From: Marsupella aquatica
Lineage: Eukaryota; Plantae; Marchantiophyta
NCBI GenBank assembly: GCA_973895155.1
Contig: OZ316892.1
Coordinates: 27,738,307 to 27,802,306 of the forward strand
Length of the DNA: 64,000 nt
Reading direction: 5' to 3'
Of the stretch, positions 3,833 to 54,983 are shown piece after piece. Positions within the stretch are counted from its first letter, which is position 1, and the number at the start of each line of letters is the position of its first letter. The position numbers and the translations under genes are program-made. The notes under the pieces were generated by a model. That model was not told where the DNA came from. It made no database searches and saw nothing but the letters and a program-made list of their open reading frames with translations.

Positions 3833-3963
3833 TTGGATTGGAGGTCAGAGACCCGAGCAGTTTACTCTCTGTGCTTCCCTCCGGCTATAATTCAAGTTGG
3901 ATTGGAGGTCAGAGACCCGAGCAGTTCACTCTCTCTGTGCTTCCCTCCGGCTATAATTCAAGT
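3833..3963. repeat. Two direct copies of a ~65-bp unit in the divergent intergenic region
   Basis: ttggattggaggtcagagacccgagcagtt...ccggctataattcaag occurs twice in tandem. Confidence 0.9.
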
Positions 3964-11911: not shown

Positions 11912-12413
11912 ATAACGACACTCCACCTTATTAGTCGTGTGACCCCAAGATGAGAGTGATTCACACTATTTTGCGTCCAAGGCATGTTTTTATCAGGAAT
12001 CACACTAATTGAGAATGTTAAGTATCCTTTCACATCATGCATCCTCATCCTGTATTGCTCAATTTCAGTTGATCTTGGGAGCAGAGCGAACCATGCTTAA
12101 GCAACGTCAACGGAAAATGGACTCCTGGAACTTTGCTTATTATGATTCCCACTCATTTTACTTGATAGTGTGACTTAACGAGTGTGACCCAAACTTTCAA
12201 AGGCTACGCAATTAGTGTGACATTGTAGACTGTGGTTACGAGAACACCTGCACTGAATCAATGCATACATTGGAAGCTCAAATCTGCAAGCAGGTCTGGC
12301 TTTTGGTAATACTACTGTCACCAAAGTTATCGACAATTGTGATTAAACCACACCTAAAGGGCTACGGTAACCCGCTCTCATTCTAAAGAGTACAACTTCA
12401 TAAATGGGCTTTG

Positions 12414-24200: not shown

Positions 24201-24684
24201 CCCGAAATGTTGTTTTGCAATGGAGGGAACAGCAGCTGTGTTGTAAACTGTGACAACGGAAACATGGAAACAATGGGTCCAAACTCGAGACAACGACGAG
24301 GAGAGAGACAAACTGAAGGAATGATGGCAAAAAGGTCGAAGAATGTCGAAGATTTGGCGTTGTCGAATTCGCTAAAAGCCCGATCTTGTCTGTTAATTTG
24401 CGCTTCGAGTATATGGGATTTACAGGACGTGTAACAATAATCAACTAATTAATTAACCAATTCTCTGCCATAAGTCAATGAAGGTCATATAGCTGTACTT
24501 AATTACTTAGTTGTAGAATTAGTTCGTGGACCCCCTAGCTACATTTTTGAGGCCTTGTTTGAGTAAAAAATGATGTATTTGAGATTAGCTTTAGCTCAAG
24601 TTGTATGAGTCTATTATGGTCCAAAATGATCTGGTAACACACTTTATTATGCTGAGACTAGCTCAATACCTGTGCGTTGCACAA

Positions 24685-25240
24685 AAGAAGTCGTGTCCGC
24701 CAAGATGTCATTGAGAAAAATGATGTAGTGTCAGCCAAGAGGTCGTGGAGAAAAAGATGTAGTGTTGCCTAGGAGGTCGTGGAGAGAAAAGATGTCGAGT
24801 TGCCCAAGAGGTTGTGGAGAGAAAAGATGTCGTGTTGCCCAAGAGGTCGTTGAGAGAAACGATGTCATGTCGCCCAAGAGGTCATTGAGAGTAAAGATGC
24901 CATGTCGCCCAAGAGGTCATTGAGAGAAAAGAAGTTGTGTTGGTCAAGAGGTCGTTGAAAGAAAATATGTAATGTCAACCAAGAGGTCGTGGAGAAAAAA
25001 GATGTCTTGTCGCCCAAGAGGTCATTGAGAAAAAAAGATGTCGTGTCGGCCAAGAAAACGTTAAGAAAAAAAGATGTCGTGTTGGCCAAGAGATCATTGA
25101 ACAAAAAAATGTCATGTTGGCCAAGAAGTCGTTGAGAAAAAAGACGTTGTGTCGGCCAAGATGTCGTTGAGAAAAAAATTGTCATGTTGGCGAAGATGTT
25201 GAGAAAAAAATGTCATGTCGGCCAAGACATCGTTCACAAA
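24685..25240. repeat. ~33-bp minisatellite inside the Helitron
   Basis: Many copies of aagatgtcgtgtcgcccaagaggtcgttgagaaaa, decaying toward ~25800. Confidence 0.9.
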
Positions 25241-26116
25241 AAATACCCATGCATTGCACAAAAGATGTTGTTAAGAAATAAGATGTCGTGTTGCCCAAGA
25301 TGTTGTTAAGTGAAAGATGTCACAAAGTAAAAAGATGTCTTAAGAAAAAGTAGTTTTGCCAAACATGCCATTGTGTGCAAGATGTTATTAAGAAAAAGGT
25401 GTCATTTTGCCAAAGATATCGTGAAGTAAAAGATGTTAAAAAAAATGGTGTTATTTCACCCAAGCTATCGTTCTGTGAAAGATGTTATGAAATAAAAAAA
25501 ATCAAGGAAACTAAGAAGGAGTGAGTCTTTTTCTTTGTTTTGTTTTTTTACCCAAAATGCCTATGCATTTGAATGTCAACCACTATAAATTGGAGCAACG
25601 TTATATTATCGGTTTCAGATTTAGTGTTTTAGGGTTTAGCAAAGATGACCATTCTCTCGATATCCTTTCAATCCCAGTGCGTTGCATAATAGATGTTGTT
25701 TGGTTAAAGATGTTGTTGAGAAATAGATCCTACGTGGTGCAAAAGATAATCGTTGAATAAAAATAATAATTGTTAAAATACATTATTACACAAAAACTTT
25801 TGTTGAGTGAAAGATATCATTGTGCAAAATAGAAATTGGGGTCCATGCAAGATAACTAAAATTTAACTAATTTCCAAAGAGTTAAATCTCCTTTTTAAGA
25901 GCCAAAGCCAAAATAATATAATGTCAACCTACTCTCTTCCCCTTAGTGCTTGCTCCCTACCAAAACCATTATCTCAAGTGAATCTTTTCACTTTCATGCC
26001 CCATGCCAAATGTACTCTAAATTAATAGACCATAAAATAATATACTTACACTTTAATGCTCCATGCCAAAAAGTATTATAAGCAAGCTACAAAATAACTA
26101 CAGTAGCACATGCAAG

Positions 26117-26403
26117 CTCGGGGGGTTAACTAAGTGTATATTTTGGGGTACCACGTGTGATCCTAGCCTAATATAAATAGACCCATTTTATAAAGAAAAT
26201 ATTCCAAGAATATTCTCTATTTTCAATACTAATAACCTATTTTACTTTATAAAGGGTATATATTAAAGAGTATTCTATAAACATGAGTTTATAATACCTT
26301 CTTTTGCCTCCTACGCTTTTTAAAAATTTAGTTAAAATCTGCCAAAAATACCTATTTTGGATCGTACGTGGTTCCTAAGATTTTTGATAGTCAACCCCTC
26401 GAG
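26117..26403. mobile_element. 287-bp MITE with 8-bp TSD, nested in the Helitron
   Basis: TIRs ctcggggggttaacta / tagtcaacccctcgag; flanking direct repeat CATGCAAG at 26109-26116 and 26404-26411. Confidence 0.88.
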
Positions 26404-27415: not shown

Positions 27416-27760
27416 TGTTGAGTATAGACGACATTCGTAACGGCAAGCCCATGAACCATCCAACGCACAATAGTCGACACAGAGAGATACGTGGTTCACC
27501 TCCACATGAGGCTATGTCCACGGGAACACACAAGAGCTTTACTGCACTCTAGACCGACCGGCCATACCAAGCATCCACAGCACAAGCTCTCTCTATCTCT
27601 CAACTAGCTTCGTAACAATGAGCCTAAGTTCCACCAGGGTCTGGCATTAGCCCTGGCTATATGCACAATAGCACTACCGCTAACATTAGCTAAAGTCCTA
27701 ACCCAAGTTAGACTAACTGTGGTTAGCTCATGAGTCACAAGACTAGAGCAATATCTAACA
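27416..27760 (-). repeat. 3' LTR of the Copia element
   Basis: 345 bp, adjacent to a polypurine tract; about 6 substitutions and 2 small indels versus the 5' LTR (by eye). Confidence 0.95.
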
Positions 27761-28034
27761 AACTCCCCCTTGACTCTTGTCTTGGGGACTGGACTAAATG
27801 CTACCATATGGAATCCTCAGCGGGAAGTTCTAGACAATCACCAAACCAGGTCTCCCCCTAAAAACCACAAGGGTTAACTAAAACACAGTGACGGACCAAA
27901 CGAGAAGTGTGACCACACTTCTCGTTTTGCCCGCGGCAAAAAAGGTTTCTAAGGCAAAAAAGTCTTGGATACGGAATTAGTATTCCCACTAAAAACTAGT
28001 TTTTCAAATTGAAAAAATGGGAAAAATTGACACG

Positions 28035-28790
28035 AATACGAAGATGGGATACGGCGTATCCCATTTCGGATCCAACCGCGGAATTCCAAACAAAAAAAAA
28101 ACACAGTAAAGGTGCCGATATTGGTTTACCCGACAAGAATATTCCAAAACGATTCTTCTCAATGGTAACATTTAACCGACTGTGATGCAACTGCAGTCAA
28201 ATACTAACCACGGTCAGTGAGAAAACTATAAATAGGAGATCACCGCTTGAGAATTTTACGCTCATTTTTTCTCGCTCTGTATACTCTTACTCTCGACGAA
28301 TGCACACCGTCTATACAAACTCGTATTCCCCAAAAATCAGTTTTGATGAATATGTGAAAATCTTCCTGAAAATGGCGAGGACGAATCCCAAATGGGATAC
28401 GGCGTATCCCGTTTGGGATTCAACCCTCAAATTTCAAGTTTTCGTTTCACATTAGCTAAAAAAGGAGGTTGGATGCGACATGGGATACCTCTGAATATGA
28501 AGTATCGTAGACTCCAAATGTCAAAACCTCAATGTTGAATGCGAAATGGGATACGGCGTATCCCATTTGGGATTCACTCTTCAAATGTCCAGTTTGATTT
28601 CTCTTTAGCTAAAAAAGGAGGTTGGATGCGAAGTGGGATAAGGGGTATCCCATGTCGCATCCAACCTACGAAAATGAAGCATCTTAGACTCCAAATGTCA
28701 AAACCTCAATGTTGAATGCGAAATGGGATACGGCGTATCCCGTTTGGGATACGGCGTATCCCGTTTGGGATTCACTCTTCAAATGTCCAG
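28035..28790. repeat. Left cluster of TGGGATAC-N3-GTATCCCA palindromes
   Basis: Copies at ~28045, 28393, 28481 (half), 28547, 28634, 28724, 28745; includes a ~177-bp duplicated unit. Confidence 0.9.
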
Positions 28791-28979
28791 TTTTGATTGC
28801 CCATGTGGTATTTACCTAGAGTTTATTTGAATGATGGGAAAAACCTTATGGATTACTGATTGTTTCGCAGGCGAAGTTCAACTGAACTGTACGCACTGAA
28901 GCTCTTGCTGCCTTTCAGTGACCGACACCCACTCAAGCTTAAGCTTTCCTTGAAAAATGAAGTTTTCTCTTGTGAGTCT

Positions 28980-29307
28980 AATGGCGGTCCAGAATCAAAA
29001 CCTTGAGAAACGTGCTCATCGATTGTATAAGCGATTAGTTGCACTCAAAGTTCTTTGTCCTGGATTAGGCGCGCTATGGACGGGAGGCGTGGATCCACAT
29101 GATAGTTTGAATCCACTCCAAATAGAGTTTTGTGAAAAAAATGAGGACGGAGTTCCAATTTGGTCGAGGATATGTTTGAGTGGTTGTCTGCACTCTGTTA
29201 ATTCTTCTTGTAACTATTGTTGTGATGCCCAAAACAAATATCATCGATTGGCATATTTTTGTTGTCGGATTTGGAACGAAGATCCTTGGGTTAACTTATC
29301 GCGTTGA
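28980..29307 (+). CDS. Small Cys-rich hypothetical ORF of the transposon
   Basis: Open frame from ATG 28980 with CLSGCLH...CNYCC...H...FCC; no family recognised. Confidence 0.3.
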
Positions 29308-29483
29308 ATTTTCTTGATTAGTGTGTAAGTGTTTAGGTGAACGTTCTTGGGTCAAACATTTTGTGAAAATATTTTTCTTTTGACCAAAGAAATAAAATCA
29401 GTTTTTCCATCACTGTTTTGTAGGTTGTTGAGAAAGAGCTCACCATCTCATTTATTACTCCAGGTATCCACTCTTATTTTGGA

Positions 29484-30035
29484 ATGGCAGTCACTGAGAG
29501 CCCTGTCTTTACAAGGTTAGCAATGTCATTCGACAAAGAGAAGAAACAAATTCAACAAAAAAGTGGCCAAAGGGAATCCGGATTGCTTTTGGATGGACTT
29601 GTTGACGAGATTGTTGAAACGTTCATTTGGCCCATTTTGAAAGTTTGTTGTATAGAGGATGAGTTTGATTCCTCCAAGAACCAAGCTGATGAAAGATTGA
29701 TGCGATTAAAAACCATGGTGTGGCTTGGATGCACCTCCAAGAAATGGAACCAGCTCGTAATTTGTACACGAGTCTGGGGTATTCTTAGACTAGCAAAAAG
29801 CCAGCTTGAGGAAGTGAATGAAATGCTGACAAGCATTCCCAATGGAAAACCCCTTCAGAATGTTCATATTGAAGCTTTTGTTAGGATGGAAACACCGAAT
29901 CTTCCTCCAATCGATTTCTTAGGTTTATTTTCAAGGTCTGACCTAAATCGATTTCAAGAAGACTGGCACAATCTTGAGAAAGATGAGCAAGCGAGGCTCT
30001 TGGAAATGTATGGGGAAGCTTCTAGTCTGGTTTAG
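29484..30035 (+). CDS. F-box-like cargo ORF (183 aa)
   Basis: LLDGLVDEIVETFIWPIL...LGCTSKKWNQLV resembles the plant F-box consensus L.GLPDE+...L..VSK.W..LV. Confidence 0.55.
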   Translation: MAVTESPVFTRLAMSFDKEKKQIQQKSGQRESGLLLDGLVDEIVETFIWPILKVCCIEDEFDSSKNQADERLMRLKTMVWLGCTSKKWNQLVICTRVWGILRLAKSQLEEVNEMLTSIPNGKPLQNVHIEAFVRMETPNLPPIDFLGLFSRSDLNRFQEDWHNLEKDEQARLLEMYGEASSLV

Positions 30036-30499
30036 AGCCATCTTGAATGGGCTCTTTGTAAAGACTCTTTTTAAGAATATCAACTTAGTTTATTTTGTGG
30101 CACAATTCTGAATGAATAAAGAGTTTTGTGATTACCCTTGCATCAACCTGATTCGCTACGCGTAAAATCTATTTGGTTGAATACAATGACTTGGGGATAT
30201 GCCTTATCTCTAGTCCCATCAAGAGAAAAAAGTATACATAGACATCTGGACTCCAACCCTATGCTTTTGGATACACACTATCGCCTGTGGAAACCTTATC
30301 GCCTGTGGATACGAAGGTGATAAAGTATAAATAGGAGTGCCTGGTCAGAAAAATTACTCTCATTTCTTTTTCTTCTCAACTTTGTTGGCCTCCGCGTTTT
30401 TCTCGGGCCGCAACATCTCTATAGCTTTTCGTATTTGCTCGAATCGAAACCAAAAAATAGGTAAAAACTGAAGAAACTCTCCCCTCCTCGTTTGGTTAA

Positions 30500-31066
30500 T
30501 TGTTGAATCCTGAGAGGGATACGCCGTATCCCCCTTTGTATTCAACTCTATTATTTGGCCTTCTTTTCAATGTTGAATACGGGATGGGATACCGCGTATC
30601 CCATCTCGCATTGAACACCCTCTTTTTAGTCTTCCATCCAAACCTCCTCGCTCTTTTTTGACTTTGAATACGAACTGGGATACCGCATTTCCCATTTCGC
30701 ATTCAACTCCCTCTTTTTTGTGCTTTGCATCAGACTCGAGGCAATTGTTGAGGTTGGATGCGAAGTGGGATACCGCGTATCCCATTTCGTATTCAAGTCC
30801 CTCTTTTTCATTAATTGCATCAGACTCTGGACATTTGTTGTTGTTGGATGCGAAGTGGGATACCGCGTATCCCATTTTGCATTCAACTCCCTCTTTTTCG
30901 TTCTTTGCATCAGACTCTGGACATTTGTTGTTGTTGGATGCGAAGTGGGATACCGCGTATCCCATTTTGCATTCAACTCCCTCTTTTTCGTTCTTTGCAT
31001 CTGACTTGGCAATTGTTGATGTTGGATGCAAAGTGGGATACCGCGTATCCCATCTCGCATTCAACT
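30500..31066. repeat. ~90-bp tandem array, one long palindrome per unit, upstream of the ParB-MTase gene
   Basis: Cores at ~30516, 30585, 30676, 30766, 30856, 30946, 31034; extended palindrome gttggatgcgaagtgggatac-cgc-gtatcccatttcgcattcaac. Confidence 0.95.
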
Positions 31067-31108
31067 ACTTTTGGTCTGGTTCTAAGTGTGTCAATCATTT
31101 TTAGGATC

Positions 31109-34100
31109 ATGTCGAACAAATCAAAGTCGTCTGGTTCGACCCAATCTTCACGGACATCCATTGTCGATGAGATTTGGAAGAAAGACCTTTACACGGAGGA
31201 GAAACTCATGAGAAATAGGTGGTACTTCAGGGATGCTCGGGCGATGGATATTCACAGAGCCTATGAAGGTCCAGCGGTGTTGTTGGTTATAGTTAAGGGT
31301 AAAGACCATTGCCATTATGGATTAGTCGACTCAAAAATAAAATAGCTGAAGAAGATTCCAATGTACCTTTGCATTCTTCCAAACAATGCCTTCACTATAG
31401 TTGTCCTCAACTACGAGAAACTTGATCGGGTCTCGATGAACACATTTCCTGATGACCCGATCTGCCAGCTAATTTCGGAAGTGCCGGAGATTGAGGACTT
31501 TTCTTATTGGTGTTTGAAATTTGTCTTGAAGTCTTGGAGGGTTGTTGAGGATTTTATGAAGGTAGCGTATAGGTCCGTTGTTGGAGCCGACTTTGGCGTC
31601 AAAGAGCGGCCTTTGAAGTTGAAAGTGACGAAGCCTACCGATCCGGCTTCAAAGTCAGGGAAGATGTCTGGAACACCCTCGACAAAGGAGAAATCTGCCA
31701 CAATTTCATTTAAGGAACCGACAAAGAAGAAGCTTGCAGATCAACTCTCCAGGGAAGGTTCTAAAGTAGCGGTGTCAGGAGAAGCTATTGTCAAGAAGAA
31801 ATTGGATCGACGTGACATCTAGAAGCGCGCGCCTTCTGCACCAGGAAGTGTTGTCTCATCTTTGGTCCCACCAATTTCATAGACACCTTCTCAGATTCCT
31901 TCAACTTCGTCAGGTGGGCCTTCTTTATCATCTAGGGGAGCTGTTAAAGAAAAGAAAAATGATTCAACAGATATCACCACAGCTTTGCAGCGGGAAGAGA
32001 CACTTGTGGTTCGTGAAGAAGTGTCTCGGTTGATGGAGACTAAGCGAGTTCAGAAGACAATAGTTATTCTGAAACAACTAACCTGCTTCTTGTTGACGAT
32101 ATTGACGACGAGAACTCAACGTTGGTTCGAACAGTCGATCGGTTGCATGTGGAGAACATCAAGACTTTGATGAAAATGAATCCGATAAATTTCACGACGC
32201 CATTTGTCTTGTTTGTGATCCCCGAAGACTGCCCGACAGTGACAGATTGGGACTCAGAAAAGGCAACAAGCTGGAGATATCAAGTGATTGGAGGTAATCA
32301 CGGTGCTCGGGCTAAGAGAGAATTGTATCAGGCTTATGGGAGAGAGATCTTCAATGAACTCCAAGCTTGGGTGTATGCTGGTCTCACAAGGGAGGACATT
32401 CATAAACTTAGCATCCAACATAATATTGATCAGGAGTACAGGAAAAAAATGAACAACATTGATCAAATCCGAACAATGCATAAGATTTTCCTTGCCAGAG
32501 GAATGGCAAAAACCAAGGAGACTAGAGAAGCGTGTGCGATGGAGGTTTGCCTCGACGGGTTTTTTCCGGGGGACGCCACAAGCCTGAAGAAGCATGAGCC
32601 TCTCTTCCAAATTGCGTTTAGGTCGGGTAAGGTCTGGGAACTCCAAGACCAGATCTTTGAGATGTGGAACAAGTTGGAGATCAAAGGGCAGAATAAGCAG
32701 AAGTCACCGATCAAGAAACTCAAGAAAGGAAAGGGAAAAGCGCAGTCGATTCCAAAAGCTTTGAATAAGCTTGCAGGGGGCCTTAACTTGACACCTTGGA
32801 GAGCAATCCAGGGAATTGAACACGACCAATGTTTGGAGTCCCTTCTTCTCCGAGTGAAGGACCGGATGATCTCTTTGGAGCAGATGGCAAAAGAAGCCGA
32901 GAGTTACAAGAAACTTGTGAAAATCAGCAAGATTTTTGTTTAGTTGTCAGGGCACCCAGACTGGGCGACTTGCAAACGAATGTTTCCGAAAGAAACAGAA
33001 TCTGTCGAGCTTGAAAGATGGAGTGGGAAATTGTCCGATGTGGTATGTTCTCCCCTTCCACTGATTGGACTTTTCTATTTGTTTCGCCATGTTTGGAGGT
33101 TTTCTTTGTGGATTTCTTGTTGGAATGCGAAGTGGGATACGGGGTATCCCATCTCGGATTCACTTGTGCTTATTTGATGTTGGTGATGTTTCAAAGCGGT
33201 TTTTTCTTGGTTGAATGCGAAGTGGGATACGCGGTATCCCATCTCGTATTCACTTGTGGTTATTTGACGTTTGTGATGTTTCAATGTGGTTTTTGCTTGG
33301 TTGAATTTGAAGTAGGATACGCGGTATCCCATCTCGTATTCAATGTGGTTATTTGACGTTTGTGATGTTTCAATGTGGTTTTTGCTTGGTTGAATTCAAA
33401 GTAGGATACGCGGTATCCCACCTCGTATTCAATGTGGTTATTTGACGTTTGTGATGTTTCAATGTGGTTTTTGCTTGGTTGAATTCAAAGTAGGATACGC
33501 GGTATCCCACCTCGTATTCAATGTGGTTATTTGACGTTTGTGATGTTTCAATGTGGTTTTTGCTTGGTCGAATGCGAAGTGGGATACGGGGTATCCCATC
33601 TCGGATTCACTTGTGGTTATTTGATGGTGGTGATGTTTGACTATGGTTTTTGCTTGGTTGAATATGAACTAGGATACGGAGTATCCCATGTCGCATTCGT
33701 CGTCCAGATTTGATTGTTTGAATTCCTAAATGGTTATCTCCCCATTGTCTTTCCTCCAGATTCTTTTAACAAGTTTGCGTTTGCAATTGAAAGCTTCTTC
33801 GAAGAAGAAGAACAAGGATGCAATTGGTGCTGATGCGGTTGAGAAGCCTACGGAGGAGCTGACTTCGAGTGTTATTCCCCCGGGGTTTAAGAATTACGTT
33901 CAAGAAGCGATTGAGAACTACAACCGACGTCGTGGGATTGAAACGGTTGAAGCAGAGTCGAATGACCATCGATGGAAAAACGTTGACGGAAATTTTATCA
34001 CATATACATTGCATTGTGGAGATGTCAGGGCGCTGGATAAGTTTGTAGAGAAAAGGAATTACACACTTGCAATTGCAGACATTCCTTATGGATTCAATGC

Positions 34101-34888
34101 GCCTGGCTCTGAAAATGATGAGGTCCCATTTTTAGAGAGTGATATTGTGGATATGGTGAATTGTTTTGCCAAGGTGACAAGTTCAAAGATGTGGAGATTG
34201 TTGTGATTCACTCTTTGCAGCAAAGTTGGTCTGTGATGAATGCTCTTGGAAAAACTTGTAACGCAGGTGTAGAGGCTGGAATTTGGGAGAAGCCAAATGT
34301 ACATGCTCATCCTTCTGGGAATCGATTGGCTTGGGTATATCGCGAGAGTGATATTATCGCGAGAGTGGTATTAGGACCAGAAACATGTACAATTTTGAAC
34401 ATGATGAGAAAAGGGTAAACATCATAAAAGTCCCTTGTGTTACAAAGAAATGTGTAACACCATTGGGAGAAATAGTGAACCCTTACCAAAAACCGATAGC
34501 TCTAGCAGATTGGTTCGTTCAACATTTTAGTGAAGCAGGGGATTGGGTTGCTGATTTATGTGCGGGGAGTGGTTTGACCTCATGCGCTGCCTTGTTAGGG
34601 AAACGTCCGGTGACAGTCGTGGAGCTCAGTGCAAGCCAGGTGGATTGTATCCGGACCCGACTTGTCACGCTTGATGAATTGTGGGACTTGAATGATGAAG
34701 CAACCGAGGAGGGTACAGGACCCATGAGCTTTGAGGTTCAACCACCTATTGGTGGTACTACGAGCACCCTCACCATTGGAACTTGCATTATTACAACCGC
34801 GGAGGAGAACGACAATGATGAGGATGAAGAGGATGAAGTGGAACATGAAGCTCCGACACTTGATCTTGGCTCATTCCTTGAGGTGTAG
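31109..34888 (+). pseudogene. ParB/Srx-like domain + permuted (beta-class) N6A/N4C DNA methyltransferase; intron 33043-33759; disrupted by stops and frameshifts
   Basis: ParB-like: HVENIK...PFVLFV...YQVIGGNHGARA...LTREDIHKLSIQHN. MTase: LHCGDV, IADIPYG (DPPY-like motif IV), IWEKPN, YQKPIAL...HFSEAGDWVADLCAGSG (motif I). Stops at 31343 and 32941, frameshifts near 31820-32120, 34200, 34340. Confidence 0.82.
33110..33705. repeat. Seven 89-90-bp palindrome-bearing units filling the MTase intron
   Basis: Cores at 33133, 33223, 33313, 33402, 33491, 33580, 33670, between donor GTATGT (33043) and acceptor CAG (33759). Confidence 0.95.
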
Positions 34889-35000
34889 ACTTAAGTTTGA
34901 TTAGTTCTCTCATGTTGTATCTATTGATCCAAACTTGTGAAATATTGAAGAAGATTATGACTGGACTATGTTCTTATTTCACAAAATAATGTCTTTGCAG

Positions 35001-35913
35001 GAACCAAAGGAGGATTTTGTATTGAAACATGTTCTGCATAGATTCTCACACAATCCTTCTAATGGATTTCTTTTGGACAATAAAACATTGAGCCAACTTG
35101 AACCCCGTCAATATTTGGGTGATGAAATAATGGAATTTTACCCACAATTAATAATCAAGAAACATGGAGATCTGGCTCCCTCAGTAAACACATTATCCTC
35201 TTTTTTTACCCTTGGCTTGTTTCAAGGATTGAAACAGAACCAGCTGAGACCTTGTTGGAATCAATTCAAAAGATGCGGAATTATTACAAGCCACCATTTT
35301 CCCAAATTGAGGTCATTCTCATGCCAATTCACATGAGCATGCACTGGAGTCTGGTTGTAATATGTTTGGATCGGATTGAATCTTTGATCAAAATGTATCA
35401 TCTAGACTCTCTCGCCGGTCTACACTCAACCCATGTAATTGGATCAATACTAAGCAGGTACGTATATATTCTATTATATTTTTTCAATTTGAATTTATTT
35501 ATGTGGTACATAAATATAAACACTTTGGACTAAGAACTTTGAATGATAATTTGCAAATATTTTACAATGGAATGGGAATTATTTTTTGGAAAAGTTCCAA
35601 TGGGAGTTGTGGAGATATACAATCCAATGGTAAGGATTTGAAAAGTAATTTCAACTTTTATTTAGTTCAATTATTAAACACTTTGGACTAACTTTAAGAT
35701 TCTTTCTCAGGTACCTCAACAACCAAACAATTCAGATTGTGGTCTATTTGTTCTTCAAAATATGGACGAAATCAGAATTCAATATGGCATATTACACAAT
35801 GCCTTGATGCACAGTCTTTATTTACTGAAAAATGGTACAATTGTAAAAGAGCATGTAACCTTAGAAAATTCATTCGAGATCAAATTCTAAAATTGATGCA
35901 TGTACCTGTTTAA
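35001..35913 (+). pseudogene. Ulp1/C48 SUMO-protease-like domain (3 exons, frameshifted)
   Basis: LEPRQYLGDEIMEFY, PIHMSMHWSLVV, HLDSL, VPQQPNNSDCGLFV supply the His-Asp-Cys triad and oxyanion Gln. Confidence 0.88.
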
Positions 35914-35924
35914 GGACATCAATC

Positions 35925-38900
35925 TCAATCCTCTAAGTGTGCAGAACCTCTCTCTAATATAGCAGACTCTATAATTTTTTTAGTTTTTGCTGCTATTTGA
36001 TTAGTACTTAAAAGCGCAAAGTTGTATGCATACACCGTTGTTGATGATAGAACTAGTTCATCTTGGAGAAGTCGATTAGATATATTATCTTTCTCTGGAA
36101 AATATTTCCCATCAATAGCAGACTCAGCACTTGCCTCAGTTGTGTACCATGTGATTTTGATTCTCTCAGGAATGTCTGCAGTTCTTGTCAAAATCTTTGA
36201 CACCTTTACCATCCAAAACAACTTGCCTTTTGGATCCTTGTGTGCCGCTACACATATCATGGACCACTTATTCTTAACTTCCATATCTCTGAAATCTCCA
36301 AATTCAGCTTGCTTTCGTCGAGGTCCGGAGTACATAATTCTCTGTGGTCCAGCAACTTTGTCAACCAAAGTTGGATCAACACCTTCTTCAACAAGTTCAT
36401 TTCTCACCCTTGGAAGTAGTTGTGCACCTTGATTTTGTTGTGGCCAAACCCACTCAAATAACCACTCACCTTCCTCTAGGTAGTTTTTGATAATATCTTT
36501 TTGTTTCTCAAAAAAACTCATCCACCAAAGTTTATCTTCATTGTCAAAGTAATTGAAACCTTCCTAGATAGCTTTTTCATATTTCACTAGAGTAGTTAAT
36601 GCACCATCTGTATTGGAAGAATCATGGACATCATACCTCTCAACACCTTTTGCTGACTTTAGTGACATTTGTGCAGCAACCCACATTCTTGAAGTTGGAA
36701 TGTATTGACGAACGTCACTGCATCTCCCCAATCCTGGGTCGTGGAAAGATGTTTCCCGTGAAATGTTGTTTCTTCGTTTCCATCCTCCATGACTCGTTTG
36801 AATCTGAATTGCCTTTGAAAAGTTATGAGATTGAGATCTCTCAAGACTCTACTTGAGACTCCCTTCTCATTTGGCTGGTCGTTTTCATTGATAAATTTTC
36901 AAAAATTGGCTACTTCATCCACAAATATGATCAAAGCTTCAGGTGAATATGCTCGTCGAATAATATCCTCAAGAGTCTCCAAGCGAAATGCTTTGTGCTG
37001 GTTTAACCTAGACAAAAATTTACTAAACATCTGATCTATCTGGTCATGTGTATGACCGACCAACAAGAAACCCACTTTAATCTTGTCAAAAATCTTCAAA
37101 TCTACTAACATGTGAAGATAAGCCATCAAGAATTTATTCTTGTTTTCCCGAGTGATATTATCTAATTAAAGATATAATACTCTTGGTAATGTCCCATCCC
37201 ATGTATTCAATACATTTTGAATAACATGTATGGTCAAGTTTGCATCATTATGGATATTGGGATATGTCAAAAATACTTTTGCTACAAGGTTCCTGTTGAA
37301 GATGAGACAACCTACAACATGTATTGGAATGAAATACTTTTCATCCATGTTCTTTGGACAACGAAGAAAATGTGGTAGCTCTGTTTTCTTTTGATCCATA
37401 CCATCTATACAAATACCCAAATACTTGTTGGGCTCATCATAGCATTTTTTACGATGCTTGGCTAACTTCATCATTTCCAATGATTGTACTTTTCGATGCT
37501 CCATAAGGGCATTGATATACTTTCCTGAAATGATACAATAGCAATGAATTAAAAATCAATAACTAAGGATAAACTTTGACAAATATTGAATTACATGTCA
37601 TCAAATTAAAGTTGAAGATTATAGTTAGTGGAACTTACTTTTATCCTCTTCAGTTGTTGCTTTGTCCCGAAGAGCCTTGAATTTAGTACAAGGACCACAA
37701 GTAGAAAATCGACTCCTTTTAGGAATTCGTACATTTGGAAACTTTTTTTTCCAAACACGCAAAAAATAAGAATATATAACTTGTTGTTCTTCTCGCAACA
37801 TTGTTTCAGCTTCAAAGATTCCATGTATCTCTTGCTTTATCCAATTGTCTGGCAAGTGATGAATCTCTTTATGGGGAAGACTATCCATATTTTTTTGGAA
37901 AAAATCTTTCAACCATTCCACCAAGTTTAGAAATGAAGGTGAGTCTTCCTTACAAAAGGTATCTCGTTCAATCCTTGTAAACATGTTTCCATGGATTGTT
38001 GTCAATCTATTATTACCTAAAGAATATAGTTTCTTGAATCCTCCTCTACATATAGGTTGTCCATTTACACTATATCCACGAGAAGTACTACAGTTGTTCA
38101 TGATACAACCTCGTAGCAAAATATTTTTTTGCAAGTGTTTAAGACCAAAATAATACTTGCGTTGTTTTGAGCATTCCTCTAGACCCAGAGACCTCAAGCA
38201 AAACTTGTCACAACAAGGATATTTAAAAATATCTTTAATTTTGCGTTTTTTTAGATTTGCAATGGTAAGTCTATCTTTTCTAATCATCTGATCTCTGATT
38301 TTCTTGCTGGGTCTTGTCACCTCTACTCTATCCTGAATAGTGTCGGGAGAACTTACCCCCCCACTATTTTCTAGTGAATTAGAATTTAAAACAAAAAGAT
38401 CTTCTGTAGAGTTGTTTCCACTCTCCACATTTTCTGTAACTGTTTCATGAACAATCTCACATCCCAGGATCTCTTCAACAACATTTGAGATTACAGCAGT
38501 CTCTCTATCATTTGCAGCCTCCTCTAATCTCTCTTCAGAGTCTTCTGAAAATGTAATAGGTGTTCGGAAATTTCTAGTTTGAAATATTCTAATGATATTC
38601 ACATCTTCAGTCGGAGTACCGCCCACTTGTCTCTGAGACTGTAATCCCAGCCTAGGTGATTCTTCTCGACTTGAGGGCTCATCTTGACCATTGAATAATC
38701 TTTGGACAAGTTTCAATTTAGCATGTACCCTTGAATTTTTGGGCCCTCTCTCCGGCAGCTCACTTCGCAATAATCTCCGAGAAATTTTTTGGACACTAGA
38801 TCTCTTCCCTCTTTCGTTCTGCACTTGCCATCCAATGGAAGATCCAAAAACCTCACACTGCATCCTCGCCAAAGGGCTTCAAAATCCAATGTTGTTAGTT

Positions 38901-39815
38901 TTACCACTCGGTGAAATAACTGATGGGAATACCGATTGGGATCCATGGATCCCAACTCGTATTCGTCCTTCAGGACTTTGAAGTGAAAACTTTCCCACTT
39001 GCTGTTCTGCGTCATGACTTGGTAATTTTCCGTTGCGCAATACGAACTGGGATCCGCGTATCCCATTTCGCATTCCACCATCGGAACTCGGGTTGGAAGT
39101 CCGCAAGACCGGTGACTCGGGCATAGGATTCTGTAAAATACCACGATGGAATACTAAGTGGGATCCATGGATCCCACTTCGTATTTGACCCAAGGAATTT
39201 GGTACTGAAGGAGACGACATAGGCAATTCGTGTTCACCGTTTTTCAACATTTGAGTAGGGAATACCAAGTGGGATCCACGGATCTCACTTGGTATTTGAC
39301 CCACCAAATTTGGCTCCGAGGCTGCCCCTCCCTGCAATTCCGGCACATTTGGACTCCTCATTCGCTCAAACTGTGATTGAACACTGGACACAGCTATCTT
39401 CACTCCCAGAGAACGAGACATTGGAAAAACCAACGGAGATCTTCGGACGGGCCTACATGGTAACGTTGTTCTTGGCATTAAAAACCGGGGCCTTCGCCTT
39501 TGAAGATCTGTCAGGGTTTGCGGTGAACCAAGTGTCTCTGTCGTAGGAACTACATTAGGCTTCTTTACAAGTAGACGTCGTTTAAGAGGTTTACTTGGAG
39601 AGACATATATAGTATGAAATCGGAGCACCCACAACACTCCTACAAGACTCTGAATCAGACTCTGATTTCTCAGATTCTGAGGAAAATGAAATCTCTGGCA
39701 CTACTCTCTGTGAGGTTTGTAATTCATTCATCAAACGAGATGGAATAAATTTTCGAACAACATCTGGCGAAGATGCATCTGAACTGTAAATTGACTCATC
39801 ACTTGAAGACGCCAT
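35925..39815 (-). pseudogene. DDE/D-type transposase (recalled as DUF7869-type, Sola-like motifs) with Cys clusters; intron 37638-37525; several stops and frameshifts
   Basis: CCDKFCL, CRGGFKKLY, FSTCGPC, CIDGMDQKKT.LPHF, LYL*LDNITRENKN, FLLVGHTHDQIDQMFS; lies between the TIRs. Confidence 0.8.
38925..39300. repeat. Four palindrome copies at exact 111-bp spacing within the transposase N-terminal frame
   Basis: tgggatcc-N3-g(g/t)atc(c/t)ca cores at 38937, 39048, 39159, 39270, translated as (G/E)I(R/H)GS(H/Q) repeats. Confidence 0.85.
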
Positions 39816-41048
39816 AGAGAATCAAACAAGGGTTGTATAGGAGTACGTATTCGTATCCAACAGAGAAAATTCAGATTACAATATTCTATGAAAACAACTA
39901 CTCAATACTGAACGAACCTCAAAGTAATCGCGAGAAATGAAGATGAAAAATAGATGCGAGCTCTTCCTTTTATAGTTTTCGGGGGCATTGGACATGTGGC
40001 ATTCCCTAATTGGTCTGTACAAGGGTTTTTTCACGTGAGAGTCTGTCTTTTCAAAGAATGCTGAAATTTAAATTGTAGATTTTCGAGGAAGTCGCCGTGG
40101 ATCCCAGTTGGACTTCAAACTGGAATATCAAGGTATGCCATGCAAAAACTTTTATCCCATCTAGTATTCAACCTTTTAAACCGTATCCCATCTAGTATTC
40201 ATCCTCCTTTATAAAACTTTTATCCCATCTAGTATCCCGATCAGTTTTTGGACTTGCAAAAAAAATGGGATCCATGGATCTCAGTTGGTATTCATGTCGA
40301 AAGATATCCTGATGCAAAGTTGCAAGTGGAAAACATTGAGGTTGAATACGATAGTGGATACTTGGATCCCATCTCGTATTCATCATGCGTTATGGGCTAA
40401 AAATTTTCCGGACATGTCGTCGGGTTAACTTAACTAACTGTGTAGTTCGACTGTAGTCCGCTGTCAGTTTTTGGTAGTTTGCAATTTTACCGCAGTTAAA
40501 AATTCAAATATTTTTAACCCGAGGTTAAATGGAAGCGTCAAGAGAATGATTTGGTGTGGTTTTCGTCCATGTTCAATGGTTGAATCCGAAATGGGATACG
40601 CCGTATCCCATTTTTAGTTTGCCATTTTGATGGCAAAAATGAAATCTTGTGTTTTACTCGTTTTGTTTGACACTCGGATTTAGCTTTTAGAAGGATCACG
40701 TGAAAAGCATTGTTTTTCCAGGTTTTGGAATTTGCACTTTTTTTAGATGAAGTGTATCGGAATTCTGGATTGTGACAGTTCTGTGTTTTTGCGTCGACAA
40801 TATCTCGATATGAAATCCGATGTTGGATGTGATTTTGGATTCATCCTCAAAATAGCGTTTTTGATCTTAATTTTAGTGATTTTTTGCCATTTTTCGCGAA
40901 ATCGAAAACACACTTCTCGTTTGGTGGTCATACTTCTCGTTTGGTCCGTCACTGTGTTCTAAGGGTTAACTAGAACTAAGCCGTAGCCTAATAGGAATGA
41001 GTAATCCATATACAAATAGTCACACATTGCTAAATAACTCTACTTGTA

Positions 41049-41763
41049 CTACAACTGCAAAACCTGCAAAGTAGCACGGTGTCTTGAGAAACTCTCTAAA
41101 GGAATCACTTTGGTAAAGGCATCAGCGAGATTGAGCTTTCCATCAATCTTGACTAGCTCAAAAATTTTATCAGACACTGCTTGCCTAATAAAATGGTACC
41201 TGATATCAATGTGCTTCACCCTGCTATCCATCACCTGGTTAGCAGCCAAGTGAAAAGCACTCTAACTATCACAATTTAGAGTCATTTTGCCATGCTCTAA
41301 ACCCATCTCCGCGATCAACTTATCCAACCAAATTGCTTCCTTTGCTACTTTTGCTGCTGCAACATATTCTGCTTCTGTAGTAGAGTGAGATCTACACTTC
41401 TGCAAAGTAGATTTCCAACTGATACATCCTCTTCCAAGAGTAAAAACAAACCCAATTGTAGACCTCCTTGTATCCAGACAGCCTCCATAGTCAGAATCTA
41501 CATAGCCAACTAATGTTCTATCTGATATGTTATCAAATAGTAATCCATAGTCCTGTGTACCCTTCAGATACCTGAGAATCCACTTCACAGCTTCCCAATG
41601 TACCTTCCCTGGATTTGACATGAATCTGCTAACCTTGTCCATCGATAGGGCCAAGTCAGGCCTAGTACAAGTCATCAAATACATCAGACCTTTCTCCACA
41701 CCTGCCTTCTCATATGGAATCTTAGCCATCAGACCTTTCTCCACAGCATCCGTAGGAGAGAAA
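41049..41763 (-). pseudogene. Copia pol remnant: end of RT + RNase H
   Basis: LMYLMTCTRPDLA, HWEAVKWILRYLKGT, GYVDSDYGG, WKSTLQ...STTEAEYVAA, CDS*SA, RVKHIDIRYHFIR, NLADAFTK. Confidence 0.95.
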
Positions 41764-43725
41764 CTCGGGGGGTTGACTATCAAAAATCTTAGGAATCACG
41801 TGCGATCTAGAATAGGTATTTTTGGCAGATTTTAAATAAATTTTTAAAAAGCGTAGGAGGCAAAAGAAGGTATTATAAACTCATGTTTATAGAATATTCT
41901 TTAATATATACCCTTTATAAAGTAAAATAGGTTATTAATATTGAAAATAGAGAATATTCTTGGAATATTTTCTTTTTAAAATAGGTCTATTTATATTAGG
42001 CTAGGATCGCACATGGTATCCCATAAACTCACGTGGAAAAAATTGCACGGCTGCAAAGCAGCCGTTTACATTCGCGCCTGGCAGGAAGTTAGGGCGCCTA
42101 CAAATGCGCCGGCCGGCGCTGCATAGCCGGTAGCAACAGTCGAGAGCACGGGAATCGAATGACGGGGTATGAGGCGGCCGGGTGTCACACAAAAATTTCA
42201 CACTATAGTAACCTTAAAAACAAAACGCCACCCAAAGCAAAAATGATACTCTTGCCTTGTCATTTGCTTGAGAAGAGTGACCACCGCCGACGGGTAAAGT
42301 TGATGAATTGTGCTGGTACAATCTGCAGCCCCAGCTCAGTGAAAAATTCCGCTGCATCGTGTTCACTCCGCGTCAAGTGCCAATCTTGGGCTCAAAACGA
42401 CCGCCTCGCCGCGGTCAAACTGTTGAGCCATAGTACTTTGCGTTTCTTCCACCGAGTCGGACGTTGTTGTAAAGAAATGAGTTTTGGAGTTAGAATACCT
42501 CACATAGAGTTTCTCACTCTATTAGACATTATTAAAAATTAAATAAAAATAAATAGTGTGACTTTAAATAGTAGTCATTTATAAATTATTAGATATAATA
42601 GACCAAAATCATAGAATAGGTAAAAATAAAATAGTATACCAAAATAATAGTATACCAAATGAGTATAGTAGACCAAATGAGTATAGTAGACCAAATGAGT
42701 ATAGTAGGCCAAGATAATAGAATAGGACAAAAATAAGATAGTGTACCAAAATGACTAGCAAATTGTGGATAGTCCACTTTACAATATAGTGTGCTAAGAT
42801 AGTGGGCAAAAAAGTGGGCTAGCAAATTGTGGATAGTCCACTTTACAAAACAGTGTGCTAAGATAGTGGGCAAAATAAGGGGCTAGCAAATTGTGGATAG
42901 TCCACTTTATAAAATAGTGTGCTAAGATAGTGGGCAAAAAAGTGGGCTAGCAAATTGTGGGTGGTCAACATTTCAAAGTATAAATAGAAGGGAACTTGCT
43001 TCCCATAGAGCATTGTGTTCCCACTATTGAGAGTGGAGTCCATGGTTTGCCGCCGGTTTTCATGATGGAAGGAATTGAGGATTTTTCTTATGGTCATGGA
43101 GGGCTATGCCACCACTTGAGCACCTTAAGTTAAATACTCAAATCTGGCAAGGACGGTTATGTCACCTGTATCAAGGATATATTATCAAAGGTTAACTTGT
43201 ACCTTAGGTTTAGCTATTCCCATAGATTGTGAATGATGTTGCATGGGTTGCCAAGAGTGCATAGATCGTCGGGAGTGGTTGTCAACCCATTTTTGATTAT
43301 ATTACATTGTTTAGATAAAAATGTAATGCGTCAAACGCTTATGTATCAATTTGATATAGATTTTGCCACCATGGTTATGAATTCAAATATTCCACTCATA
43401 TATCCCGTAGTTACTTATGAAGAAGAGTGGGTGTGTACTATCTATATTTTGTATTAGAAAAGATGGATTTGAATCAGGTCCCAAGTCCAATCTTAAATTT
43501 GATGTCTTCCTTGAGTCTAAAGATTATTATGCGAAGGAAGATAGCGTGTAGGAAAATCTTAATAAGAAAGTTTGGAGAAGAGTCGTATAATGTTATAGTA
43601 TCTTCGGAAGAACCTCTAATACTTTACGGGGATCATCCAAGGGGAACTTTAAGTATTTTTGTGCTTGTATAGTTCAGGTGAGTAGTTGTATTTGCACAGG
43701 CAGCAAGGCCCAGTGCCTCTCGAGT
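41764..43725. mobile_element. Insertion beginning with the 26117 MITE family end, replacing Copia gag-PR-IN-RT
   Basis: 41764-42022 is the reverse complement of most of 26117-26403, starting at ctcggggggttgacta; followed by unrelated sequence with 18-bp and ~63-bp tandem repeats (42650-42960); right boundary uncertain. Confidence 0.65.
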
Positions 43726-44207
43726 AGTTTAAAACCCCAAGACAACGTCACGAAGAGAAACCCGGTTCAGATGAGAACAAGCTCCAAAGCTTGTGAAAAA
43801 ACCTGAACGCCTCCGTCACTTGTCACGTCACACTCGGTAACAACTCGGCAGCAATCCAACTACCAAAATGACCAGCTCGCATCAACCTTCAACATGAGCT
43901 ATAATGTGCGATCCCTCCCATACCGCACAGCTCACACCGTTGAAAAATGCGAACTCTGGTCTCTCCACCGAAATACCGTCAAACACGAATAAACCCTGAA
44001 CGACGCAAACTTCAATTCCTCCACACCACGGATACTGATCAGCGAGTTCTAACCACCGTTAGAAAGCCCTCTCACTAACCTATCCGCTCAGCCATACACA
44101 TTCGAGTTTCATGCGACGAAACTCCAAATGTACCATCGACAATGAACCCTGGAAAAAACTTGTCACAAAAAAACCTCGTCACCTCCTAGGCATGCTCTGA
44201 TACCACT

Positions 44208-44555
44208 TGTTGAGTATAGTCGACATTCGTAACGGCAAGCCCATGAACCATCCAACGCACAATAGTCGACACAGAGAGAGACGTGGTTCACCTCCACATG
44301 AGGCTACGTCCACGGGAACACACAAGAGCTTTACTGCACTCTAGGCCGACCGGCCATACCAAGCATCCACAGCACAAGCTCTCTCTATCTCTCAACTAGC
44401 TCCGTAACAATGAGCCTAAGTTCCACCAGGGTCTGGCATTAGCCCTGGCTATATGCACAATAGCACTACCGCTAACATTAGCTAAGTCCTAACCCAAGTT
44501 AGACTAACTGTGGTTAGCTCATGAGTCACAAAACTAGTAAGAGCAATATCTAACA
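44208..44555 (-). repeat. 5' LTR of the Copia element
   Basis: Adjacent to the PBS; matches 27416-27760. Confidence 0.95.
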
Positions 44556-48674: not shown

Positions 48675-49732
48675 CTAGCTCGATTTGTTTAAAGATTCAA
48701 GTGAAGCTGGTGGCCTAATCACAACATTTTTCTTCCATTCCCGATCCAGCTTCCGTGATTCCCTCATGGAGATTCCTTTCTCAATCTCCCTTTCACGACG
48801 AACCGTCAACATCCTTGCAATCTGCGCCAGCCCCAACATTGTTGATGTAAGTCACAGTCCTAGCTCACAAAACAAAACGAGCCAATAATGACAGGCTTGG
48901 ATCTGGAAAATCTCAGTTAAAATGTCGCCTGCTTCCAACCAACAAATTCCAATGAAAACCCTACCTGCTTACGAATTTTGCGGAAGTCGCTGCTATTGTA
49001 CTCCTGTCTTGTAGCTTGCTTGCATCGCAGAACGAAGAGCTCTCCCTTCAGATCCGTGACTGTCTGTCCAATACTTTCCTCGGTCATTTGCCTAATTTCC
49101 ACAAGTTGTTGCTCTCTTTTCGCCATGGCCGAAACTTGAAGGGACTTCCATTGGGGAGCTCTTGCAGCTATTGGAGCCACCTGAATCCTGGCCCCTCCGT
49201 TGAAGGCTCTCCCGCTGCTACTGACCTTCAGCCACACACAGATTCCCGAGACAGTGAGGGCTCTAGAAAAACAACAGTTGCTTCCTTCCGTCTGACTGTC
49301 TACATGGCATAACTTGCTTCTCAGATAGTCAATAAATGCTGACAAAATAATTGACAAACGCAAGAAAAGAGATCTCTCAGCTTCTACATAGATACTCCAG
49401 AAGCAGAGCCCAGCAAGTCCGACCAACAGGGAAATCTATCGACCAAAACGCCCACATTACGACTAAAGCAACCTCGGAACATCAAGTATTGAAGCATAAT
49501 TATCACGCAGACCACAGAAAAGCTTCTCTTGAATGACCACTTCTGCTTAAAAGATACGAATACAATGGAACCCAGCTAAAATGGAACAAATGGGGCACCG
49601 GCACCGGACAGTCCTCGAATCTCTCAAAGAGCGCTCGCTATGGCCTTCCATCGAAATCCATACCTGGGTTGCCTGCAGGGCACCGACGGATGCGAGAGCA
49701 GTACCAACGATCGTAGCTGAAATCGCGGCCAT
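48675..49732 (-). CDS. RPL29: Plastid 50S ribosomal protein uL29c; exons 49732-49664, 49225-48965, 48821-48675 (158 aa)
   Basis: Transit-peptide-like N-terminus, then MAKREQQLVEIRQMT...DLKGELFVLR...FRKIRKQIARMLTVRREREI...RKLDREWKKNVVIRPP. Confidence 0.95.
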
Positions 49733-53334: not shown

Positions 53335-53865
53335 TGCATTTCTAGACAGTCAGTCAATCTAGCTAGTCAGTCGTGAAAAGGTCTCTTGAGTGGACTCCGA
53401 AGTGGTTTGGATGCTGGATCGCTTCGCATCGGTCTCAATTCAGTGGTTGTGGTCTCGCCTCTCTCATCTCAGGGATTGTTCCTTTGTTTGTGGATCGCTA
53501 GACACTGTCAGTCAATCTAGCTCTCTCGCTCGTGTGTTGAATTTGCAGTCAGTCGAGAAATGTTCTCTTAGAGTGGACTCCGACTCCGAAGTGGTTTGGG
53601 TGCCGGATCGCTTCGCATCGTTCTCGATTCAGTGGTTGTGGGGTCTGATCGCCTCTCTCATCTCAGGGATTGTTCCTTTGTTTGTGGATCTTTAGACACT
53701 GTCTGTCAATCTAGCTCTTTCGCTCGTGTGTTGAATTTGCAGTCAGTCGAGAAAAGTTCTCTGGGTGGACTCGGATTGAAGTGGTTTGGGAGCTGGATCG
53801 CTTCGCGTCGTTCTCTATTCAGTGTTTGTGGTCTGATCGTCTCTCTCATTTCAGGGATTGTTACT
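53335..53865. repeat. ~175-bp tandem repeat (3 copies), probably in the 5' leader of the nucleotidyltransferase gene
   Basis: tagaca...gtcaatctagct...gtggactc...gaagtggtttgg...ggatcgcttcgc...ctctctcatctcagggattgtt occurs three times. Confidence 0.9.
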
Positions 53866-54983
53866 TTGTTGGTTGGTCTCGGAAGGGAAGGCCAAAGAAT
53901 TTTCGGCTGGGTGGTGTTGTTCTCGAGAGTTGTTGAGATTTTCGGCTGGGGCCCTTCGGTTTCTTTGAAGATCTTCCATCACTGGGTTTGCTGCGGACGG
54001 GGCTGCGGAGGTAGATTGTACTCTGGCGCTTCGAAATCAGTTGCTGAATGAGGTTTCTGTTGGAGTCAGCATCCCCAACTGCTGCTTAGAGCTCTGCTCA
54101 ATTGATGGTTTTCCTGGCCTAGGAATATATCGCGGAGGACACAGGTAGCTCAGGTATCTTCAACTTGGAACAGAGCATTCCGGATTCCTTCCTCCGCCCG
54201 TCACTGGTTTAACTGTGCTACGTCCGAGGATTAACGCTTGAAAGCACTTCTTACTGAGTTGCCACTACCTGTCCAGAGAGTGACAACCTCAAAGACGATA
54301 GATTAATAAGTTGTTTATAGTATCGAATAATATCAATATAAACTTTGCATTCGGATTTGTGCAATGCCGTCTGATTTCTGAGATGTTATCAATCGATTTC
54401 TATCAATGGCGTTAATGGTTCTCAAATTTCTCTCTATGGCTTGTTCCTGTCAACTTATTCTCAAGTTCTCTCTGTGGTCGATGACGTTTTTCTGGATGGT
54501 CCTCGAATTTCTATCAAAGGTGGTTGTGTGCTACAATTCATTCCTGCCACTCTATTCTTACATCTCCTCTTGAATCTTCGCTTTTGCCAGGATACTCATG
54601 TGGTTGTGATCATGCACCCGCGTCGATGACTTCTTCGAGTCCCCTTCAGGCTTGGTAGTTCAGACGATAAGAGTTGCGTTGAGTTGCATTTAGTGGCAGC
54701 ACCATGACCGAGTGATCGAGGATGGTGATTTGACGATGTGACCGTAAGGCGGAGAAATATGCGGCGGGCCCGCCTGATTCTCATCACACGTTCTGGACAA
54801 AGAAACTGATTTCTCAAAGAGAGGACCCAGTCAGCTGCATTGTCAGGACGAGGAGGTTTGACCACATTTGATAGAGTTGAGATCTCCATTTTGACTTCTG
54901 CAAACGCTCAGCGCCAGTTGGTGGACACTATTATCACACGAGCTTTGTTCTGGGTATGTCTGGTAGCAGCTTGTACGTCATCC

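Follow-up and report, generated by a model that had tools for sequence, protein, structure and literature searches.

A ParB-methyltransferase gene and family-specific palindrome arrays in a decayed, probably Sola1-like transposon of the liverwort Marsupella aquatica

Within a 64,000-nucleotide stretch of the Marsupella aquatica genome (GenBank assembly GCA_973895155.1, contig OZ316892.1, positions 27,738,307 to 27,802,306; hereafter the window) lies a 13,077-bp transposon bounded by terminal inverted repeats (TIRs; window positions 27882-40958), in which a two-part gene with a ParB-like region and a DNA methyltransferase (MTase) region converges on the transposase and would encode a fused product of ~1,010 aa. 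The element also carries its own palindromes. Together these features suggest a scheme, which on the sequence evidence we regard as evenly poised between right and wrong, in which the protein binds the palindromes, writes N6-methyladenine (6mA) beside them and shields the element from host silencing by 5-methylcytosine (5mC). An earlier note on this DNA had proposed that the element marks or protects its own DNA by amino-methylation, and this idea is now partly supported, in that it fits the predicted domains, with indirect support added by the geometry of the arrays and by a gradient in CpG content. Transposons of this kind are already known from algae, as predictions published in 2025 without a defined site, and the land-plant variant is a new addition to them. 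What is added here is the spread of the fused gene across streptophytes, intact relatives with their gene layout and array-filled intron, family-specific cores, a shared GAAT motif and the CpG gradient.

The first part of the ParB-MTase gene (31109-33042, plus strand) comprises an N-terminal domain, a low-complexity linker, a domain of the ParB/Srx fold (GGNH at 32290) and a helix-turn-helix (HTH). It is followed by a phase-0 intron (33043-33786) that contains an array of seven palindrome units with a period of 89-90 bp, and by an exon (33787-34888) for a beta-class amino-DNA-MTase with an acidic tail. In the window copy the gene is damaged by four stops in the first part (31343, 31820, 31880 and 32941), by three frameshift sites (near 32072, near 34197 and at ~34335-34340) and by a damaged intron acceptor; contigs of other copies have AG at 33786 and also differ from the window at the frameshifts near 34197 and 34335. 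Comparisons with relatives are defined by five related metagenome loci of 1.1-5.0 kb (L001-L005). The same layout of ParB exon, array-bearing phase-0 intron and open MTase exon is found in L001, L002 and L003, with one stop in the ParB exon of L002 and one frameshift in that of L003. Because this intron is conserved, and because ParB and MTase parts stand in single-chain proteins of Chara and Ginkgo, the two parts are, judging from gene structure, exons of one gene with one predicted polypeptide as its product. The N-terminal domain (31109-31700, ~170 aa) is kept in L001, L002 and L005 at ~26% identity and has no Pfam match in the window copy or its relatives; Atlas matches to arthropod lipid-binding proteins, at low recognition, were not accepted.

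The ParB-like region that the earlier note had recognised stands on structural grounds. No Pfam profile matches the frame at 32044-32940 in the window copy, its top sequence match is a weak one to Spo0J (E 0.41), and hhalign of the ParB alignment against one phage ParB gave no match. The frame has 18 relatives at 47-81% identity, and its model (pLDDT 74.9) retrieved in Foldseek, at all of the listed ranks 1-21, Noc, ParB, KorB, PadC or Spo0J, with a best E of 6e-4. VIA aligned PadC over 99 positions (Z 8.3, rmsd 2.9), and the KorB DNA-binding domain with residues 123-294 over 111 positions (Z 5.2, rmsd 4.0). A ParB/Srx fold followed by an HTH is thus confirmed at the level of the predicted structure.

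The permuted MTase of the earlier note is likewise borne out. The N6_N4_Mtase profile matches at E 3e-6 (27.7 bits against a cut-off of 26.7), and motif IV (DIPY, 34078) precedes motif I (DLCAGSG, 34553), which is the permuted order of the beta class (PF01555). The modelled protein of L002, which is intact in this domain (pLDDT 79.6), matches CcrM at E 2e-12 and then RsrI, the bdelloid N4CMT and PvuII, so that the beta-class amino-MTase fold is confirmed, on a model of an intact relative. All 25 rows of the clade that holds the window sequence have D[IVL]PY, and the catalytic motifs are retained across relatives that are 50-80% identical.

A profile search returned 330 representatives at E<=1e-10. 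Thirteen of 20 that were looked up could be named, from Chara braunii (six), Adiantum nelumboides (four), Ginkgo biloba, Riccia sorocarpa and Diphasiastrum complanatum; these genes are known as proteins, which does not imply a transposon context. In several of these proteins, Chara P0078 and Ginkgo P0083 among them, a single chain spans ParB part and MTase, and the predicted fused gene is accordingly spread across streptophytes, from Chara through liverwort, clubmoss and fern to Ginkgo. In the predicted Chara braunii protein P0078 the ParB-MTase unit occurs as a tandem pair, possibly because annotation has joined two neighbouring elements. In a quick tree with long branches, which 73 of 189 sequences entered and for which the rows from Adiantum and Diphasiastrum were too incomplete, the window sequence falls in a 25-row clade (SH-aLRT 100) and six prokaryote-type rows group apart. 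Prokaryotic and phage MTases are at most ~27% identical over the domain. Seven of the eight long prokaryotic or viral MTase hits that were checked have ParB_N before N6_N4_Mtase (E<=1e-3, one above the cut-off); the element's own ParB profile found no match among 5,134 open reading frames (ORFs) from 54 such prokaryotic or viral loci, and no relatives of the transposase were found in viral contigs. An old phage-type origin of the gene seems likely on these comparisons. Recent bacterial transfer or contamination is excluded by the low identity together with the conserved introns. Capture of the cargo as a single event, which the earlier note had named as a possible refutation, is excluded for the ParB-MTase gene by the relatives and for the Ulp1 region described below by another copy, in which it stands beside the MTase. 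A word index, which is a weak search, found no longer ParB relatives; the profile search did find fusions.

The palindromes, ~27 units in five groups with the core GGGATAC-NNN-GTATCCC, belong to the element itself, as had been noticed earlier: at up to two mismatches, 25 matches lie within its 13,077 bp and none in the 50,923 bp outside. Array 1 (28035-28773, six units) precedes the small frame ORF1, and array 2 (30505-31062, seven units, period ~90 bp) precedes the start of the ParB-MTase gene, probably within an intron of its 5′ untranslated region (GT at ~30461, AG at 31104). Array 3 is that of the phase-0 intron. Array 4 (38927-39297) consists of four variants with a 16-bp core inside the transposase frame, where a period of 111 bp (37 codons) keeps all four in frame, and the last group (40256-40620, cores at 40267, 40355 and 40593) lies upstream of the transposase. 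Arrays occupy the same ParB-MTase intron in L001, L002, L003 and L005 with other cores, namely GCGAGAC-NN-GTCTCGC in the last three and the asymmetric CCGATCC-AA-ACATCGG in L001. The core is thus 16-17 bp long and family-specific; units of one family do not count as independent observations, and the independent core types number three. At 11 bp outside the half-site stands GAAT, in 38 of 58 cases in the window (two poor hits included) and in 22 of 38, 12 of 16 and 3 of 6 in L002, L003 and L005, respectively; in L001 it is found on one side only (11/20) and was not called at all on the opposite side. L002 and L003, which have a common core, also have similar predicted recognition helices; those of L001 and the window differ. 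That the core tracks the recognition helix is, with three core types, a lead only.

These observations allow the proposed mechanism to be set out in steps. A dimer of the ParB-HTH part would probably read the family-specific core through its HTH, by analogy with the reading of parS, a 16-bp palindromic site, by ParB. The tethered MTase domains would then methylate near the GAAT, and because of the D-x-P-Y motif the predicted target is adenine rather than cytosine, a step to which we give much the same good chance as the first. Binding and mark together might lower CG methylation locally, so that transposase and cargo are expressed, as VANC does for VANDAL elements; for this step the balance tips slightly the other way. 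The same targeting could instead place N4-methylcytosine (4mC) on the CG-rich centre of the palindrome as a direct block to 5mC. The units are indeed CpG-rich (observed/expected ratio 1.35), the scores of N4CMT and PvuII are near those of the 6mA enzymes, and a phage hit annotated as an N4-cytosine enzyme has DLPY, but motif IV begins with D rather than S in all 25 near rows, Marchantia DN4MT1 has TSPPY, and the best-conserved flanking motif is GAAT, so that we consider a 4mC mark unlikely.

The placement of the arrays also bears on what they are for. ParB family members bridge DNA and Dam methylation times the transposition of bacterial IS elements, and the ParB part could accordingly bridge or compact the 13-kb element on its arrays and join its ends, with the methyl mark timing transposition. 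Units do lie near both ends (28046 and 40593) and along the whole element, and it is giant elements that carry the ParB-MTase gene. The densest arrays, however, flank and interrupt that gene rather than the ends, the CTP-binding arginine seems lost, and the TIR has a sub-repeat of its own; such an aid to transposition therefore strikes us as improbable. Still more doubtful is the idea that the transposase or a host factor is what binds the arrays, with the ParB-MTase protein acting elsewhere or carried as inert cargo. Transposases can bind and activate their cognate elements (bioRxiv 10.64898/2026.08.24.746577) and four units sit inside the transposase gene; yet the MTase catalytic motifs have been kept across the relatives, the same ParB-MTase intron is array-filled in four elements, and red-algal arrays likewise adjoin a ParB gene (bioRxiv 10.1101/2025.02.11.637652).

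With the units masked, the CpG observed/expected ratio falls with distance from the arrays (0.84, 0.66, 0.62, 0.39 and 0.37), while GpC is flat over the same distances (0.70-0.79); the correlation of CpG with distance is rho -0.63 over 26 windows. This retention of CpG near the arrays speaks against a further alternative, in which the protein is a KorB-like repressor that acts on the promoter and intron arrays, marks its own copies and limits copy number. The best fold matches do include KorB and Noc, the arrays lie just upstream of the ParB-MTase start and inside its intron, and the bdelloid enzyme N4CMT marks transposable elements for silencing (PMC8885841), but a chromodomain-like reader was looked for in the N-terminal part and none was found, and self-repression is in our view quite unlikely.

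Several points weigh against the scheme in which the protein reads its palindromes and protects the element by 6mA. Gene identity and GC content both confound the CpG gradient, whose windows are non-independent, and the 3′ end of the L003 transposase has a ratio of 0.51 although it lies within ~600 bp of palindromes. HTH_ParB matches L001 at E 8.6e-4, under the Pfam cut-off, and has no match in the window copy. The arginine patch with which ParB binds CTP has the motif GxxR; here 18 of 19 rows have GGNHG at this position and one has GGNHR, and since the arginine is replaced in nearly all near relatives (G-N-H-G), a CTP clamp appears doubtful in them. In the MTase, Cys takes the usual place of Phe in the S-adenosylmethionine motif. 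Nor can the target base be read from motif IV, since the beta-class domain has switched between 6mA and 4mC repeatedly (PMC8885841) and SPPY is present in one distant member. Finally, the window copy is full of stops, several of them readable as C-to-T changes, and this copy was therefore not protected.

The boundaries of the element are well defined. Its TIRs (27882-27916, starting AACAC, and 40924-40958 on the minus strand, ending GTGTT) are 35 bp long and identical at 34 positions, a contig of another run begins matching at 27882, and the flanking target-site duplication (TSD) CTAA stands at 27878-27881 and 40959-40962. The empty site, with 27877 joined to 40959, is found in contigs of all four sequencing runs compared and represents other copies of the host retroelement without the transposon. 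Because this joint shares four letters, a 4-bp TSD is fixed. Termini of EnSpm/CACTA/Plavaka or Chapaev elements start with CAC; ends of that kind, at 27884 and 40956 as first given, are excluded, since they yield no TSD and conflict with the empty site. The TIR-bounded 13-kb element of the earlier note is thus upheld with each end moved 2 bp outward. Within the left TIR lies a short sub-repeat that has no relation to the palindromes and is likely to be a transposase site. The minus-strand transposase, also foreseen, is a DDD-type enzyme (35925-39815, motifs DGMD...LDN...GHTHDQID) with Pfam matches to DUF7869 at E 2e-28 and 9.5e-8, an intron at ~37506-37638 and at least five breaks, and its C-terminal part is 49% identical to that of L003; contigs of other copies differ at its frameshift near 39605.

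Sola elements are defined by a 4-bp TSD, TIRs and a DDD enzyme (PMC10741241). The TSD and the 35-bp TIRs satisfy the features of Sola1, and DUF7869 with its three Asp motifs suggests a DDD enzyme, the placement beside Repbase Sola1 being provisional and by description. CTAA, at the single insertion site examined, does not fit the AWWT preference of classic Sola1 (PMC3845634). Termini that start with AAC and a TSD ending in A do match the type of Sola1-1_Ec32, and the element is very likely Sola1-like and of the Ec32 subgroup.

Parts of the stretch are present in six sequencing runs under three organism labels, four of them at 45-47% of words. All 30 bins are covered in each of the four runs compared and thousands of variant contigs align, so that the element is a multicopy family, for which read depth gives no copy number. 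The copy in the window is dead: stops and frameshifts break every long gene. This decay, the union of ParB and MTase in one gene and a conserved ORF at 28957-29307 go beyond the earlier note. In two runs, contigs fuse the left and right arrays (28577/40578) and omit 12,000 bp; the joint marks a ~1.1-kb non-autonomous derivative, which probably arose by recombination between palindromes. The insertion itself sits within a Copia-type long terminal repeat (LTR) element on the minus strand (27416-44555, ~4 kb without the insert). This host has LTRs at 27416-27760 and 44208-44555 (96.8% identity), a 5-bp duplication TTTGA, an initiator-Met primer site, very high contig depth and, as the only coding part seen, a remnant of reverse transcriptase/RNase H. 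A third LTR-like piece (86%) lies at 60202-60416.

The remaining cargo is less uniform. Between the MTase and the transposase stand exons of a Ulp1/C48 protease (35001-35913, plus strand, with His, Asp, Gln and Cys motifs), frameshifted near 35200 and 35782, where contigs of other copies again differ. Peptidase_C48 matches at E 5e-9 and 1.6e-5, above the cut-off, the His-Asp-Cys triad and the Gln of the oxyanion hole are intact, and the region resembles SENP2; the Ulp1 region reported earlier is, by its sequence, a real protease domain, which does not imply specificity for SUMO as against NEDD8 or ubiquitin. It may be a spliced, in-frame extension of the MTase tail, since GT at 34883 and AG at 35000 are in phase, and a 945-nt contig of another copy bridges the MTase end and Ulp1. 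In L001 and L003 the ~350 bp from MTase stop to transposase stop hold palindromes and no Ulp1. Plant TIR elements repeatedly carry Peptidase_C48 as cargo (PMC12973397). The F-box ORF of the earlier note (29484-30035, plus strand, 183 aa) is intact, and its assignment is weak: Atlas scores it 0.91 for F-box with recognition below threshold, there is no Pfam match at E<=1 and none in the PDB or in L001-L005, and in L005 no F-box separates ORF1 from the ParB-MTase gene. Because L001 and L003 lack Ulp1, and L005 the F-box, at the corresponding places, both are lineage-specific extras. The earlier picture of a self-contained module that remodels SUMO- and ubiquitin-dependent silencing does not survive as a conserved feature; as later additions, the two may serve to strip off SUMO or to break down a silencing factor. 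ORF1 (28957-29307, plus strand, 116 aa) is small and Cys-rich, matches L005:161-547 in tblastn (E 8e-6) and holds the same position at the head of the cargo there (L005:83-547). It could correspond to PAG1, of unknown function, in the red-algal elements discussed below.

Elsewhere in the window, an inverted pair of 263 bp, 95% alike (26141-26403 and 41764-42026, one copy in the Copia internal region), is probably another small mobile element. An uninterrupted 539-aa frame with poly(A) polymerase/terminal uridylyltransferase domains lies at 54810-56426, and a minus-strand frame matching ribosomal L29 at 48920-49435. A tandem duplicate of ~6 kb (1300-6000 and 7200-12000, 78-84% identity) had no Pfam match in the frames tested, and tandem repeats of ~35, 18/64 and 180 bp occupy 24683-25322, 42594-42977 and 53365-53870, respectively.

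The earlier note did not recognise the combination as that of a described plant transposon family, and this holds in part: the core architecture and the hypothesis are in print for algal transposons, and a literature search found no land-plant case, with Sola1, ParB and methyltransferase together giving the Ectocarpus paper alone (subscription papers, Repbase and Dfam being outside the search). Sola1-1_Ec32 of Ectocarpus encodes a 1104-aa protein with ParB and an N4/N6 methyltransferase opposite its transposase, whose best match is Physcomitrella Sola1-1_PPa. Its termini are AACCG-CGGTT and its 4-bp TSD tends to finish in A; the authors of that work propose self-binding and self-modification and cite green and red algal cases (PMC12477816). 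Our element resembles it as a giant Sola1 with AAC-starting termini, a 4-bp TSD ending in A and a ParB-MTase gene opposite the transposase, a likeness at the level of description; Sola1-1_Ec32 differs in its brown-algal host, its 21.5 kb and its 282-bp TIR, and the passages on it mention no Ulp1, SUMO or arrays. The Plavaka (EnSpm) elements of Bostrychia, with PAG1-3, have a ParB-like protein, a PF01555 methylase and tandem inverted-repeat arrays beside the ParB gene that are proposed as sites for the ParB protein, in a cassette that moves between transposon families (bioRxiv 10.1101/2025.02.11.637652). These features are shared by the window element, whereas in the red-algal elements ParB is fused to a 2-oxoglutarate oxygenase, the methylase to SET, and the transposase is of the EnSpm type. 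ParB-HTH-fused Dams of a different methylase group are described from chlorophytes and chytrids, and the chlorophyte type is thought to have been lost in land plants (Iyer 2016; PMC4738411).

Phage ParB-methyltransferase fusions share the order of ParB before MTase, at the low identity given above; unlike them and unlike ParB-parS systems, the window gene has introns and an extra N-terminal domain, with no ParA seen. The bdelloid N4CMT and Marchantia DN4MT1 are likewise beta-class amino-MTases of prokaryotic origin in eukaryotes, but they are host genes and 4mC writers with a chromodomain or no extra domain, and the TSPPY of DN4MT1 sets it apart. VANDAL elements of Arabidopsis likewise combine an accessory protein with repeats that are family-specific and lie in introns and non-coding parts. 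They differ in being Mutator-like elements with an unrelated protein that has no catalytic DNA-marking domain and whose targets are non-palindromic. VANC binds its repeats in these places and removes CG methylation locally (PMC5735166).

Candidate sites that are explicit, family-distinct and of fixed geometry, together with intact enzymes in the relatives, make binding, target base and anti-silencing directly testable. To our knowledge, VANC is the only protein by which a transposon has been shown to target its own chromatin, and it lacks a catalytic DNA-marking domain. If the proposed mechanism is true, epigenome tools would gain from the fused protein a methyl writer that is compact and site-specific. 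It is a tentative picture, and one that we think on balance improbable in full, that seed-free plants and gymnosperms host an old transposon lineage with a phage-derived system for reading and writing, which would read a family palindrome, place 6mA at a fixed GAAT and thereby label its own copies and escape 5mC silencing, with core and recognition helix as a specificity code and a SUMO protease bolted on, possibly in the same polypeptide. If true, such elements would supply land plants with 6mA (or 4mC) placed enzymatically and at specific sequences.

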